Virus record (IMG/VR): IMGVR_UViG_3300024983_000137
Source of the DNA: a virus
Reading direction: 5' to 3' (one strand)
DNA length: 64,000 bases
In this document: piece by piece, positions 42,544-49,236 of the stretch
Layout of the letters: every line of letters starts with the position of its first letter
Position numbering within the stretch: position 1 is the stretch's first letter
The notes under the pieces: generated by a model
Seen by the model: the letters and a program-made list of their open reading frames with translations, nothing else
The model's database searches: none
Told to the model about the DNA's origin: nothing
Made by a program: the position numbers and the translations under genes

Positions 42544-43605
42544 TTACAATTTGATTCCTGTCTTTTGCGCCAGGGCTTTGTAGCGGTCAGGATCTTCTTC
42601 TTTCATTTTTAAAAGCCCGGCAGTGTCTTTTCGGGACCAGTCGGTGAAGCTCCAGTCCTTATTCTCTTCAGATACAGGATTGCCTTTGTTTGCTCCCGGA
42701 GTGACCGGTAGGTTTTCTTTAGCTTGCAACGCGGCTATTCTTCGTGCTGCCAAGTCATAATTGGCTGTTGCCAATTGTTCCCAATCGTCAGACTCTGCCT
42801 TTGGAATTCTGCCGTCAGCAACGGCCGGATCAATCAATGCACGGATGCGTGCTTTAGTCGCAGCAGCTGTCTTTTCCTTCAGATCATCATTCTCTTTAGA
42901 CAATCTTTCTACAGCTTCATTTACCTGCTCGTCTGTAGCGTCATCCGCTACGCCAAGAATTGACTTGGCTTTTGCGCTCAATTTCATGTGCTCATCATTT
43001 TGATTATTACTTGGTTGTTTAATGAATTTCTGATCGAAGGTGTTAGCCAGGGCAGTGAAGGACATGGATTGCAATGCAGCCAGATCGATATCATCCAGCA
43101 CGGTATCTGAGATCTGATCTACTAATCCGGCATTCAGAGCTTCTTCAGCGCTGAACCAGTTGTCACCATTCAGCCAGGCTTTTACTTCCTCTTCGGTTTT
43201 ACCTGTCTTAGCTGCGTACTTGGTTATGAACTGTTTTTCCATTGTCGTCAGCAGCTGTGCTGCTTTGCTCATCGAACTGGCGTTGCCTTCCACGATTCCG
43301 GACGGCGCATGGATCATGACAAAAGCATTATCCGCAATTGATACCGTATTACCTGCCAGCATCAGGATAGATCCCATACTGGCAGCGAGGCCGTCAATTA
43401 CAATGTGGATCTTTGCCTGTGAGTTCCGCAGTGCATTGTAGATAAGATTACCGTCGAATACGCTACCTCCGGGAGTGTGAAGATGAATCGTCGCTTCTGT
43501 CTTTGACTTTAAAAAAGCCTTTAATTCCGATGCGATGTACTGCCCGTCACCACCCCAAATGGTTCCATATAACTGACCTGTTGATCCCTCTGATGTGAAA
43601 TACAT
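42544..43605 (-). CDS. ClpP-like prohead protease with a scaffold-like C-terminus
   Basis: HLHTPGGSVFDG, GLAASMGS, VMIHAP, NWFSAEEAL. Confidence 0.9.
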   Translation of the reverse strand: MYFTSEGSTGQLYGTIWGGDGQYIASELKAFLKSKTEATIHLHTPGGSVFDGNLIYNALRNSQAKIHIVIDGLAASMGSILMLAGNTVSIADNAFVMIHAPSGIVEGNASSMSKAAQLLTTMEKQFITKYAAKTGKTEEEVKAWLNGDNWFSAEEALNAGLVDQISDTVLDDIDLAALQSMSFTALANTFDQKFIKQPSNNQNDEHMKLSAKAKSILGVADDATDEQVNEAVERLSKENDDLKEKTAAATKARIRALIDPAVADGRIPKAESDDWEQLATANYDLAARRIAALQAKENLPVTPGANKGNPVSEENKDWSFTDWSRKDTAGLLKMKEEDPDRYKALAQKTGIKL

Positions 43606-44207: not shown

Positions 44208-45734
44208 ATGGCTGGCGAAACACATAAGCTGAAGGACAAACAGGCAGTCAAGCGCTACGATGAATTAATCCAGCGGATCACGGCTCACAGTCAGATCAAT
44301 CCTTTTGAGACTGACAAGGAAAAGAATGTCCGAATCTCAAAAGCAAAAGCAGACTTCAAGTATTTCGTTGAAACCTACTTCAAACACTACGCAGAGAGCG
44401 AAACTCCTTTTTTTCACATCCGGATAGCAAGAAAAGTACGGCGGAACAAGAAATACAAAGGCTGGCTAAAGTGGGCGCGCGGACATGCTAAATCAGTAGT
44501 TGCTACTGTACTGCTTCCGTTATGGTTGTGGATCAATGATGACATTAAATACATGGTCGTTGTTGGGCAGACGGAAGATAAAGCAAAAATTCTGCTTAGT
44601 GACATTCAGGCAGAGTTCGAATACAACCAACTACTGATTAACGATTTCGGTGTTCAGAAAGGCACTAATAACAAATGGGAAGAAGGGTATTTCGTCACCA
44701 ATTCCGGCTTCAAGGCAAAAGCGCTCGGAATGGGACAGGATCCGCGCGGATTAAGAACAGTTGCTGATCGGCCGGACTATATCGTCGCGGATGACTGGGA
44801 AGGAAAAGATACAGCCAAAAATCCGAAACGCCAGGATGAATATGCCGAATGGTTCCTGCGAGGAGTGATCCCGACAATGGATAACAAAAACAGGCGTGTC
44901 CTTATCGCGCAGAACCACTGGACGCCAAGAATGATCTTTTCCAAGATCGTGGAAGAAAATTCCGGCTGGGATATCGACAGGCTTGACGGTTATGATCCGG
45001 TAACTTATATGCCTACCTGGAAGGAGAAGTACGACCGATGGTTCTTTAAAGAGATCGAGCAGGAAATAGGTACGATCAGAGCGTTAGCAGAGTATAATAA
45101 TACACCACATATCGAAGGTAAGCTATTCCTGGACGAATACATCCAATGGTGTAAGCTTCCGCAGTTACGATCAATGACAGCTATCATAGGCCGCTGGGAC
45201 GTAGCGTTTGCCGGCACAAAGACTTCCGATTATAATGCCGTCCGGATTTGGGGCTTAAAGGATGGTAAAAAATACCTGATCGACTGTTTTGTCAAGCAAT
45301 CCAAAGTAAAAGAGCCACTGAACTGGATCGCCGATTTTCAATCACGGCTTCCTGAAGGAATTAATGTGCAGATAGGTTTTGAAGCGCAGTTCTGGAACGA
45401 AGAGATCTACCGGAACATTAAAGAAGTTGAGGAAGCTAAGAAGATCAGCCTGAACCTGGTTAAGATCGACCGCAGGAAAGGTAATAAGTATGATGACATC
45501 ATTAAGATGTTGCCACAGTACCAGAATAGCCGGATCTATTACAATCACCATCTCCGATCACACAATGATACACAAGTTGGACTGGCACAGCTGAAGGGAA
45601 TCGAGCCCGGCTACAAAACAAAAGACGATGCACCGGATGCAGATACCTACTCTTTCGATTACCTGGATGCTTTCGAACGGCACGACAGGAATCCAAACAG
45701 AACAGGGGGAACAAGAACAAACCGAAAATTTTAG
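44208..45734 (+). CDS. Terminase large subunit
   Basis: WARGHAKS Walker A variant, RPDYIVADD Walker B, WDVA and DDAPDA nuclease motifs. Confidence 0.85.
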   Translation: MAGETHKLKDKQAVKRYDELIQRITAHSQINPFETDKEKNVRISKAKADFKYFVETYFKHYAESETPFFHIRIARKVRRNKKYKGWLKWARGHAKSVVATVLLPLWLWINDDIKYMVVVGQTEDKAKILLSDIQAEFEYNQLLINDFGVQKGTNNKWEEGYFVTNSGFKAKALGMGQDPRGLRTVADRPDYIVADDWEGKDTAKNPKRQDEYAEWFLRGVIPTMDNKNRRVLIAQNHWTPRMIFSKIVEENSGWDIDRLDGYDPVTYMPTWKEKYDRWFFKEIEQEIGTIRALAEYNNTPHIEGKLFLDEYIQWCKLPQLRSMTAIIGRWDVAFAGTKTSDYNAVRIWGLKDGKKYLIDCFVKQSKVKEPLNWIADFQSRLPEGINVQIGFEAQFWNEEIYRNIKEVEEAKKISLNLVKIDRRKGNKYDDIIKMLPQYQNSRIYYNHHLRSHNDTQVGLAQLKGIEPGYKTKDDAPDADTYSFDYLDAFERHDRNPNRTGGTRTNRKF

Positions 45735-46173: not shown

Positions 46174-47397
46174 ATGGCAAAGAAACAAGCAAAACAAGCA
46201 CCGGAAACGGCACAGCCAAAGCAACGCCCGGACAGACTGGTAACACGTATTATCCGCAGCACTAATGCGCGGTCTAAAAAAGATATTCAGCAATGGCGTG
46301 TCGCGCTGCAGCAAGCAGAGAATGCCGATAACCCAAAGCGGATACTTCTTTATAACATCTATAATGAAATTCTTATTGACGCGCATTTGTCTGCAGAAAT
46401 CGAACGGCGTTTAAATGCACTGCTCGGAAATAAGTACGAATTGTATGACGAAGACGGAACCGCACAACCTGAAGCTTCAGCAATGATCAGAAAAGAATGG
46501 TACAGACAGCTGCTGCGCTGGGCATGGGAAACGATCTTATGGGGCCATTCGCTGGTTGAAATCGAAGCACTCACTCAGGATGGTTTAATCGGAAGCGTGA
46601 GACTGGTGAACCGCTGGCACGTTTACCCGGAACGTGGGATTGTGGCAGTAAAACAAGGCGACGAAAATGGGATTGACTACAGATTAGACAAGAAGTATTC
46701 GCCCTGGTTGTTCGAGATCGGTGATCCGTACGACTTAGGTTTGCTCAACAAATGTGTTCCTCATGTGATCTTTAAACGTTTTGCACAAAGTGCCTATTCA
46801 GAGTACTGTGAAGTGTTGGGGATTCCGCCACGGGTGCTCAAAACTGATGCACTGGATCCGGAACACCTGAACCGCTCCGAAGACATGATGGCAAATATGG
46901 GTACAAACTCTTATGCTGTCATCGGAAAAGATGAAGAGATTGTTTTTGTGAACGCTCAGGGCGGAGATGGTGAGATCTTTACCAATCTGTTTAAAATATC
47001 TTCAAATGAGATTTCCAAATTAATAGGTGGAGCTGTAATCGGAGAAGACTCGCAACAAGGATCAAGAGCAAAAGAACAGGTAGCTTATGATTTAAGCAAG
47101 TCCATCCAGCAAGCGGACAAGACAATGATTGAAAGTGTGATTAACGAGCAGATCATTCCACGTCTTGTTGAAATGGGTTATCCGTTCGCAGGGTTAACTT
47201 TTGAATTTATCCGTGAAAAGAACCTGACTGAAGAACTGGATATGGCTTTGAAAATAGCACAGCAGTTTGATATGGATAAGGAAGGCATAGATTATATGAA
47301 TCAGACGTTCTCTGTACCTGTTGTGAAGCAGAAACAAAATTCCGGGTTCGACGGAGCAGCTCCTGAAGCTAAAGGGAACAGCTCTTTTTTCGGCTAA
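46174..47397 (+). CDS. Portal protein (Mu gp29/DUF935-like)
   Basis: DAHLSAEIERR, DLGLLNK, LGIPPRV; ends T TTT TTC ggc TAA. Confidence 0.85.
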   Translation: MAKKQAKQAPETAQPKQRPDRLVTRIIRSTNARSKKDIQQWRVALQQAENADNPKRILLYNIYNEILIDAHLSAEIERRLNALLGNKYELYDEDGTAQPEASAMIRKEWYRQLLRWAWETILWGHSLVEIEALTQDGLIGSVRLVNRWHVYPERGIVAVKQGDENGIDYRLDKKYSPWLFEIGDPYDLGLLNKCVPHVIFKRFAQSAYSEYCEVLGIPPRVLKTDALDPEHLNRSEDMMANMGTNSYAVIGKDEEIVFVNAQGGDGEIFTNLFKISSNEISKLIGGAVIGEDSQQGSRAKEQVAYDLSKSIQQADKTMIESVINEQIIPRLVEMGYPFAGLTFEFIREKNLTEELDMALKIAQQFDMDKEGIDYMNQTFSVPVVKQKQNSGFDGAAPEAKGNSSFFG

Positions 47398-48689
47398 GCC
47401 CCGATGCACTCGGGGCACAGCTCGCAAAAACGTATGATCTTACTGCCGTAACTGCAGCAAGCAATATCTTCAGTGACGATGAGCTGGAACGAATTGCACG
47501 GAAGTTTTTCAATGATAAGGGCGAACCCGTCGATGATGAACTTTGGAAAAAGAATTATTCCGAATTATCTAAAGCGATCGGAAAGGGTTATACCGTTGTA
47601 ACAGACGAGCAGGATGTCCGGATGAATTACGAGCTGAAAAATAACGTTGCCGTCTTCGCTGCTTTCAAAGCCTGGCGCATGGGTGGAGATGTAAGCAATC
47701 TGCTTGTGGATGAAAATGGTAATAAAAAACAATGGGGCGAATTCCTGAAGGATTACAAAAAGATAAATGGTGATTATAATGTTCACTGGTTATCTGCAGA
47801 ATACAATCTGGCACAACGCCAGGCAAGCGCTGCACGTCAATGGCAGGACTGGCAGCGGGATAAGCATGTTTATCCAAACCTGGAATATATGCCTTCCAAA
47901 AGTGCTAACCCAAGTGAGCAGCACAAGCTCTATTACGGCATTATAAAGCCGATTGATGATCCGATCTGGAATTATATTCTGCCTCCGAGCAGGTGGAACT
48001 GTGATTGCTGGTTAAAACAAACAAGGGAAGATCCTACCGAACATGACGTGGAAGTTCCGACACCACCTGCAGGAATTGTTGGGAATCCCGGAAAGACAGG
48101 AATGATTTTTTCACCGGATCATCCATACATACCGAAAAGCAAGGCTGAAAAGCAGGAAGTGCGGGAATCTTTCAATCAATTGCGAAATGCTTTGAATGAA
48201 GAGTACATTGATTTCAAGGCGAAAAAAGGAAAGGTGCGGGTGAGCATGAACGCAGATCCGGATGATTACCTGGACAACTTCCGGTACGCAAAAAATGTCA
48301 GCGATCAACATCCTGGAGTGTTCAAAATTTTGGCGCATTCAAACAAACAAGGTGTTAAAAACCCGGAGTTCAACTATAAAGGGTTTGTCGGTGACAGAAC
48401 CGCGGCAAAAACATCCTATCCGGAGAAGTACATCAACAATAGCTTTTCGGATAAAATGGGTGTAAAAAAACAGCTCAGAAGCTTTGATAAAACATTCATT
48501 GCGCTGGACTTCGGTAATATTCTTAATGAAGACAACGTGCTTAGGGCTGCTCAACAATTGTATGGAAAGTTCAAACGTTATGAGACCGTTCATTTTGTAA
48601 TCTGCAGGAAAGGTAACAAAACAGTTATACTATCTAATGGCAGCAGCATTAAGGATATGAGCGATAAAATCACAAAAGGACTGCTATAA
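47373..48689 (+). CDS. MuF/gp30-like minor head protein with a C-terminal toxin-like domain; 5' part has no start codon
   Basis: LSAEYN, PNLEY, PPSRWNCDC MuF motifs; frame is open from 47373 but the first ATG/GTG/TTG is at 47622. Confidence 0.78.
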   Translation, partial: REQLFFRLSPDALGAQLAKTYDLTAVTAASNIFSDDELERIARKFFNDKGEPVDDELWKKNYSELSKAIGKGYTVVTDEQDVRMNYELKNNVAVFAAFKAWRMGGDVSNLLVDENGNKKQWGEFLKDYKKINGDYNVHWLSAEYNLAQRQASAARQWQDWQRDKHVYPNLEYMPSKSANPSEQHKLYYGIIKPIDDPIWNYILPPSRWNCDCWLKQTREDPTEHDVEVPTPPAGIVGNPGKTGMIFSPDHPYIPKSKAEKQEVRESFNQLRNALNEEYIDFKAKKGKVRVSMNADPDDYLDNFRYAKNVSDQHPGVFKILAHSNKQGVKNPEFNYKGFVGDRTAAKTSYPEKYINNSFSDKMGVKKQLRSFDKTFIALDFGNILNEDNVLRAAQQLYGKFKRYETVHFVICRKGNKTVILSNGSSIKDMSDKITKGLL

Positions 48690-48753
48690 AATAACAGTCC
48701 TTTTGGGGCGGGATTGGCAATGCCGCTCCCTATATTTACAAATATACAAACAA

Positions 48754-49236
48754 ATGGCTGATTTCAAAAACATTGATAAAAAAATAGCTAATCTGGAACG
48801 ATACATCCGGACAGAGCTGCCTACCATTATAGGCGTGGAAGGAGTTAACCATTTCAAAGAATCGTTCCAAAACGAAGGGTTCACCGATCGAAATCTACAA
48901 AAATGGCCTCAGGTAAAAAGAAGAACGGCGACATCACCCTGGTATGGGTTTAAATACGGTTCCAACAAAATATCTAACGCAGCCACCAGTAGAAAGATTC
49001 TTACGGGTGAATCAGGCGCACTGGCAGATTCCATACGATGGAAGCTATACGCAAATGGAATCCGATTTATTGCCGCCACTAAATACGCCAAGATTCAAAA
49101 TGAAGGAGGTGAGGTGAAGGTATTCGGCCGGGCAACCAAAAGAATTCCGGCAAGGAAGTTTATGGGAGATTCTGAAAAGCTTAGAAAGCGGATTGTTGAC
49201 ATAGTAATTAAGGACTTTAAACGTATAATGAAATGA
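48754..49236 (+). CDS. Virion morphogenesis protein (Mu gpG-like)
   Basis: FQNEGF...KILTGESGALADSI...YAKIQNEGG...IPARKFMG; start at ATG 48754. Confidence 0.8.
   Translation: MADFKNIDKKIANLERYIRTELPTIIGVEGVNHFKESFQNEGFTDRNLQKWPQVKRRTATSPWYGFKYGSNKISNAATSRKILTGESGALADSIRWKLYANGIRFIAATKYAKIQNEGGEVKVFGRATKRIPARKFMGDSEKLRKRIVDIVIKDFKRIMK

Follow-up and report, generated by a model that had tools for sequence, protein, structure and literature searches.

A conserved slippery heptamer and hairpin at the portal/MuF junction of a Hankyphage-like, Mu-like prophage: a candidate programmed −1 frameshift

The portal/MuF junction

The window analysed here is a 64,000-nucleotide (nt) stretch of viral DNA (IMG/VR virus record IMGVR_UViG_3300024983_000137), and the element of interest lies where its portal gene meets the gene for the MuF head protein. 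This junction, which belongs to a Hankyphage-like, Mu-like prophage, carries a slippery heptamer in the last codons of the portal gene, a GC-rich hairpin just beyond the portal stop and an open −1 frame that encodes MuF, making it a candidate programmed −1 ribosomal frameshift (Table 1).

The portal product, 407 amino acids (aa) long, matches Portal_Mu over residues 60-370 (E 4.7e-66; 223.9 bits, gathering cut-off 23.9) and also matches phrog_113 (portal protein). Its gene closes with AGC TCT TTT TTC GGC TAA, whose final triplet, the stop, occupies 47395-47397. The original prediction, made from the sequence alone, had placed at this point an in-frame slippery heptamer and, after a 6-nt spacer, a perfect 7-bp GC stem, facing a −1 frame open from 47373 to 48689 but devoid of ATG, GTG or TTG for 83 codons. 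Letter by letter, the heptamer is present and in phase; the stem is perfect, with arms GCCCCGA (47398-47404) and TCGGGGC (47410-47416) around a TGCAC loop; and an open reading frame (ORF) check returns the same start-less frame. The 101-nt context of the junction has a folding z-score of only −1.83, so the case for structure rests on comparative data. As a terminator, the hairpin was rejected: no T-run lies 3' of it on either strand, and a terminator scan is empty there.

The two frames overlap by only 25 nt, and the heptamer falls within this overlap. In the −1 frame, the first ATG, GTG or TTG occurs at 47622, 77 codons past the slip point and 83 codons from 47373, and the gene caller reports only a truncated MuF of 336 aa. 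Sequence comparison shows that the start-less stretch is coding, because the N-termini of homologues align to residues ~20-83 of the window MuF (47430-47621), 5' of the first ATG; a MuF begun at that ATG would thus lack a conserved part of its N-terminus. Searching with the −1 frame translation retrieved ~50 homologues (among the matches listed), mostly 400-437 aa long and covering 87-98% of the query. Several of them begin with a methionine (MSATY, MEDVY, MHKTY) opposite LAKTY of the window, and tblastn matches at many loci begin at MuF residue 5, which is the Phe-Phe (FF) of the heptamer.

The MuF assignment is marginal by its Pfam match (PF04233, E 9.1e-7, 30.0 bits against a gathering cut-off of 29.6). 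The protein also matches phrog_19194 over residues 36-271 (E 1.7e-63), and PF04233 is carried by 48 of 50 MuF homologues among the matches listed. The gene directly follows the portal gene, as membership of the MuF family leads one to expect. A slip at the heptamer would join portal residues 1-406 to 432 further codons (47391-48686), with a junction reading ...GNSSFF/RLSPDALGAQLAK. When recomputed from the sequence, this junction and the lengths agree with the 407-aa portal and 838-aa fusion that had been forecast.

Table 1. Features of the portal/MuF junction and of the surrounding head module in the window
Feature	Position	Strand	Remark
Portal gene	46174..47397	+	zero-frame product 407 aa; Pfam PF06074 Portal_Mu, phrog_113
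Slippery heptamer T_TTT_TTC (X_XXY_YYZ)	47385..47391	+	portal-frame codons start at 47386 and 47389, hence in phase
Spacer GGC TAA, 6 nt, containing the portal stop	47392..47397	+	from sequence
Putative stimulatory hairpin GCCCCGA-TGCAC-TCGGGGC, 7 bp	47398..47416	+	−12.7 kcal/mol folded alone
−1 frame ORF encoding MuF	47373..48689	+	read from 47391 after the predicted slip; preceding TAA 47370-47372
MuF (Phage_Mu_F) domain	47751..48011	+	PF04233, residues 127-213 of the −1 frame product
C-terminal CdiA-CT-like (PD-(D/E)xK-type) nuclease-fold domain of MuF	48165..48686	+	AlphaFold2 (AF2) model, PDB fold match
Small-terminase-like helix-turn-helix (HTH) protein			head module around the junction
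508-aa protein in large-terminase position	44208..45734	+	position only
Gp36-like protein			before portal and MuF in the head module
Phage_tail_S / Mu G-like protein	48703..49236		gene after MuF
ClpP-like protease fused to Mu-I-like (Mu-like_Pro) segment	42544..43605	−	divergent, 5' of the terminase genes

Conservation of the heptamer and hairpin

A profile scan yielded 80 IMG/VR loci and 13 genome loci (denoted L below) with MuF relatives at 28-55% identity. These were picked by MuF similarity, without use of the junction, and duplicate junctions were removed. A scan of viral contigs with the single protein found no relative, whereas the profile-based scans did, and blastn against phage records gave no match. 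In 54 non-redundant junctions the portal gene is separate and MuF lies in the −1 frame. Every one of these has a slippery heptamer in phase: T_TTT_TTC in 41, T_TTT_TTT in two, an A-run (A_AAA_AAA or A_AAA_AAG) in ten and G_GGA_AAG in one. The heptamers sit within a short zone that is open in both frames. That MuF is in the −1 frame at 53 of 57 unique junctions is not counted as evidence in itself, since ATGA and TAATG overlaps, which are common, produce that frame too.

The heptamer is not a general feature of these portal genes. Across 20,652 in-phase portal positions off the junction, T_TTT_TTC occurs at most three times and is outside the twelve commonest heptamers. Nor is it explained by a conserved peptide. 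Phe-Phe elsewhere in the portal genes uses all four codon pairs (TTT-TTC 11 times, TTT-TTT nine, TTC-TTT seven and TTC-TTC five, with a preceding T in 8 of 32), so a conserved FF does not account for the invariant xxT TTT TTC. Lack of a MuF start is likewise recurrent: no ATG lies within 40 codons of the heptamer in 33 of the 54 junctions, and no ATG, GTG or TTG in 19. At L011-L013 and L026, the −1 frame opens precisely at the heptamer.

A relative that shows the signal is L002, a metagenome-assembled genome of a same-genus Crocinitomicaceae with 55% MuF aa identity, which reads GAT TTT TTC GAC TAA GCCCCGA-tactt-TCGGGGC gttg ATG. Heptamer, TAA stop and stem are retained from the window to this locus; the loop has changed, and a MuF ATG follows the stem. 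Among the T-run junctions a perfect hairpin is present in 43 of 43, beginning 3-8 nt past the heptamer (most often 6) with a mean of −13.5 kcal/mol. Hairpins at the junctions score 20.2 on average; random portal positions have a mean of 8.6 and a 99th percentile of 21. In the same set the portal stop ranges from 0 to 51 nt past the heptamer while the heptamer-hairpin distance is held. Because that distance is constant from the heptamer and not from the stop, the conserved unit is the heptamer with its hairpin rather than the stop with its hairpin.

A covariance model trained on 13 sequences sharing the geometry of the window was run over 433 kb on both strands. It gave 41 hits, all at junctions. 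Each locus has one hit except L011, whose junction hairpin is hit a second time from the opposite strand. The 64-kb window is hit once, at 47379-47420, with 47.4 bits. A MAFFT alignment of 30 junction sequences came out gapless and left 3' arms with unequal loops out of register, so the covariance-model alignment was used instead. In that alignment 97.6% of stem cells form standard pairs, a share that drops to 34-63% once the 3' partners are displaced by 1-3 columns. The stem covariation score of 0.273 (0.095 in shuffles) was reached by none of 500 shuffles, and double-sided changes affect pair 5 in 10 sequences and pair 6 in 12 (22 cells). The original prediction had called for a check of heptamer, stop and stem across Bacteroidota Mu-like prophages, and each comparison of this kind favoured it. 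Heptamer, phase, spacing and stem hold, with compensatory changes in the stem, at MuF identities of 28-55% in Mu-like phages and prophages, of which most belong to Bacteroidota.

A further group of ~20 loci encodes one portal-MuF protein of 700-911 aa, and phrog_35074 likewise spans both halves. Eleven of these fusions (L051, L054, L067, L069, L072, L075, L086, L088, L089, L101 and L102) retain the in-phase T_TTT_TTC, the 6-nt spacer and the GC stem, with the junction near 2200-2420 in most. In these eleven, a ribosome shifted to −1 would meet a stop 14-30 codons later. The product would then be a plain portal, so that the polarity resembles that of dnaX and is the reverse of the window's. The stem is translated as FFADAP... 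in the in-frame fusions and as FFRLSP... in the window, with identical nucleotide geometry. One nucleotide module read in two frames argues that selection acts on the RNA and not on the peptide. Together with the fixed synonymous choice and the covarying stem, this makes the conservation of the signal exceed what the protein sequence needs.

Homologues with a normal MuF start or an in-frame fusion had been named in advance as observations that would count against the frameshift. Both kinds exist alongside start-less MuFs with the signal, yet the signal is kept in all three, as expected if it is under selection and not an accident of the window genome.

In another fusion clade an A10 run stands at the junction, and a −1 shift meets a stop after 1-2 codons. 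Run length also separates close relatives: L018 (~2440-2475) has A9, with separate portal and MuF genes in an ATGA overlap, and the near-identical IMG/VR phages L019 and L022 (2442-2452) have A10 and a single 908-aa fusion. An error in sequencing the homopolymer could account for the difference, as could a hypermutable switch or DNA that is prone to slippage.

By tblastn, the family is found in 54 records of Bacteroides, Flavobacterium, Porphyromonas, Winogradskyella and Elizabethkingia phages. In Hankyphage (Bacteroides phage p00, BK010646.1; L103, 1807-1855) the junction reads cgT TTT TTC ggg aaa GCCCCG-gggagaga-CGGGGC, in phase and inside the portal gene. The BK010646.1 record annotates two separate genes and no recoding, and the Hankyphage paper is silent on a frameshift.

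The predicted frameshift and its alternatives

Heptamer, spacer, hairpin and phase, the standard geometry of a −1 recoding signal as originally described, are thus all present in the window and conserved beyond it. On this sequence evidence, the site is quite probably a programmed −1 ribosomal frameshift with two products, the portal of 407 aa and a portal-MuF-nuclease fusion of 838 aa. Most ribosomes would read TTT TTC GGC TAA and release the portal. A fraction would pause at the GC hairpin, whose base lies at a customary distance, 6 nt past the heptamer, and two tRNA-Phe would slip from UUU UUC to U UUU UU, presumably re-pairing in the −1 frame perfectly or by wobble. Translation would then go on as CGG CTA AGC... 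across the hairpin into MuF. In Escherichia coli, U_UU.Y is the second-ranked −1 shift-prone A-site motif (PMC4066793). That ribosomes shift here, and with what efficiency, we infer from the sequence.

Because no MuF start codon lies near the conserved N-terminus, the frameshift would be the sole route to full-length MuF in the window genome; as the sole route, it would make MuF at a fixed low ratio to the portal and pre-tethered to a portal subunit. In SPP1, the MuF protein gp7 binds the portal, and each capsid holds 1-2 copies of it (PMC5576092). Since in-frame portal-MuF fusions exist and gp7 binds the portal, a covalent link is biologically plausible. By analogy, it is reasonable to suppose that the frameshift may set the copy number of MuF on the portal dodecamer, keeping it sub-stoichiometric.

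The survey also suggests a wider reading, which we favour with some reserve: the portal/MuF junction of Hankyphage-like Mu-like phages may be a general recoding switch that sets the share of the twelve portal subunits bearing a covalently attached MuF nuclease, through three interchangeable wirings. In the first, that of the window, a stop follows the heptamer and MuF is start-less. The second keeps the stop past the heptamer but gives MuF a start of its own. The third joins portal and MuF in one frame, and here it is the −1 shift that ends in a stop.

Several points weigh against a frameshift. Eleven of the 54 junctions, L002 included, offer an ATG no more than 25 codons from the heptamer, and the annotated MuF ATG of Hankyphage overlaps the portal stop, 36 nt downstream of the signal. 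As MuF has its own start in Hankyphage and in L002-type phages, a fusion is not needed there to make it, and in such phages the hairpin might act on that start instead. The survey loci are phylogenetically related, so that the counts overstate independence. The three outer G-C/C-G pairs of the stem are invariant and hence uninformative on structure, and the stem alignment was fitted to the covariance model, which biases it towards structure. A covalent portal-MuF link would also require proteolysis if the nuclease domain must exit the capsid.

The first two of these points also suit an alternative, an improbable one in our estimate, in which MuF is translated independently, from a non-canonical start or by termination-reinitiation, and the T-run and hairpin serve coupling or regulation of the MuF start. 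A structure beside a start could indeed tune initiation. However, the window offers no ATG, GTG or TTG for 77 codons past the slip, and the 19 junctions that lack all three within 40 codons share this state. The hairpin keeps its distance to the heptamer and not to a stop or start, a conserved heptamer phase and synonymous choice are unnecessary for the control of initiation, and in-frame fusions without an internal start retain the module.

Very unlikely for the window is transcriptional slippage, in which RNA polymerase would slip on the T6 tract, adding a U to some mRNAs and bringing the fusion into frame. The fusion product would be the same, and related clades carry A9-A10 runs at the same position, lengths typical of the process. 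Against this, an in-phase X_XXY_YYZ with a 3' hairpin at 5-6 nt bears the hallmarks of a ribosomal event, and none of the 43 T-run junctions departs from the phase, which slippage of the transcript does not require. Six Ts are also short for efficient polymerase slippage. Slippage is a minor alternative where the run is T6, but has to be taken seriously in the A9-A10 clades.

Decay of the prophage is highly improbable. It would have the MuF start lost by mutation and either a truncated MuF (from the ATG at 47622 or later) or none made, in keeping with the ATG that the same-genus relative has at the CTC of the window and with a gene caller that gives the 336-aa product only. Yet the start-less state recurs across divergent lineages with intact, conserved N-terminal coding, the neighbouring head genes are intact and the element is identical in samples of 13 studies.

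The length of the T6 run, which had been flagged for confirmation in raw reads, was compared at the level of contigs, some of which may derive from the source sample. Three independent metagenome assemblies (one JGI, two ENA) match the window over 341 nt of the junction, T6 included, and contigs of four runs from four wastewater/bioreactor studies show no substitution and no indel over 46900-47900. The run is shared by more than 40 distinct related loci and by Hankyphage records from Bacteroides hosts. A homopolymer assembly error hiding a true T7, and with it a plain in-frame fusion of the kind seen in relatives at 840-911 aa, is thus barely credible although one more T would join the frames, the more so as the in-frame fusions themselves carry T6.

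If the programmed frameshift is real, it would be a second conserved frameshift in the structural genes of tailed phages besides that of the tail chaperones, and one that is unannotated even in Hankyphage, among the commonest human gut phages. Annotation of a large group of Bacteroidota phages, Hankyphage too, would then omit a major virion protein and truncate or mis-start MuF. It would also represent a simple genetic means to place a few portal-bound, nuclease-carrying head proteins in each capsid, and would make the copy number and portal association of MuF/gp7 directly testable through seven nucleotides. What is new is the gene context (portal/MuF) with its variant wirings, the −1 frameshift mechanism itself being known. 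No published description of recoding at a portal gene was found in open-access text, so that its absence is no proof, and the accessible part of a 2016 recoding review does not mention 'portal'.

Known systems, the nuclease-fold domain and neighbouring genes

A known structural counterpart is the −1 frameshift in the tail assembly chaperones, found in most tailed phages and, as G/GT, in lambda (Xu, Hendrix & Duda 2004, as related in PMC7302621 and PMC7911831). In both systems a conserved −1 shift on X_XXY_YYZ near the end of a structural-module gene would add to the major product, at a fixed ratio, a minor one with an extended C-terminus. Unlike G/GT, the window involves a portal and MuF gene pair and not chaperones between the major tail and tape measure genes, its heptamer is accompanied by a strong conserved 3' hairpin, and its extension amounts to a whole protein of 432 residues and two domains, which other phages encode in a gene of its own.

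The frameshift of E. coli dnaX, which yields tau and gamma, uses A_AAA_AAG with a 3' stem-loop (PMC5009743, PMC4066793). The window shares with it the pairing of a heptamer with a downstream hairpin across a short spacer. It differs in that the zero frame gives the short product and the −1 frame the long one, and in its U-based heptamer. The in-frame fusions (L051, L054, L072, L088 and others) resemble dnaX in that a −1 shift would give the short product. Bacteroidota largely do without Shine-Dalgarno sequences.

Covalent portal-MuF proteins are also known as in-frame fusion genes in Microbacterium phage clusters EA and EB (PMC7302621). These contain the same two proteins in the same order and demonstrate that the covalent arrangement is viable. 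They are, however, plain fusions in phages of Actinobacteria with no recoding reported, whereas fusion in the window would be conditional on the frameshift. In phage Mu, the homologous Portal_Mu and MuF genes H (portal, gp29) and F (gp30) occur in the same order. Unlike the MuF of the window, F has its own ATG with an annotated ribosome-binding site and lies in the +1 frame of H, with which it shares 20 nt, and both heptamer and hairpin are absent from the H/F junction.

MuF proteins of temperate phages have been described as polymorphic toxins (Jamet et al. 2017, PMC5576092). As in the window, muf lies directly 3' of the portal gene and the protein combines an N-terminal MuF with a C-terminal domain, which in the window is toxin-like by its predicted fold; neither a frameshift nor a portal fusion is described in that study. 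The C-terminal 174 residues of the window MuF have no Pfam match at E 0.05, and Atlas gave PF18451 as a lead. Their AF2 model (predicted local distance difference test, pLDDT, 93.4) has as its best PDB match 4g6v_A, the CdiA-CT tRNase toxin of B. pseudomallei 1026b (Z 10.2, root-mean-square deviation 3.2 A, 121 of 132 residues; runner-up Z 6.6). Foldseek gives the same structure at E 1.4e-3. Below it, the structure matches are other PD-(D/E)xK-type nucleases, and Foldseek against Swiss-Prot models returns weak PD-(D/E)xK-like rows only.

The original prediction had called this domain a toxin. The label finds support at the level of fold only, as a CdiA-CT-like nuclease. In contrast to the toxins of Jamet et al., however, the domain is conserved across the family and not polymorphic, and no immunity-like small ORF was identified beside MuF, the next gene (48703-49236) being Phage_tail_S / Mu G-like. 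The model would thus support 'nuclease-fold, toxin-like' at most.

The genes around the junction constitute a Mu-type head module. The 508-aa protein, which occupies the position of the large terminase, has no Pfam match at E 0.05. The ClpP/Mu-I-like protease encoded divergently at 42544-43605 could act as a processor of the predicted portal-MuF fusion. In phage Mu, the Mu-I-like protease follows F and G, unlike the order in the window.

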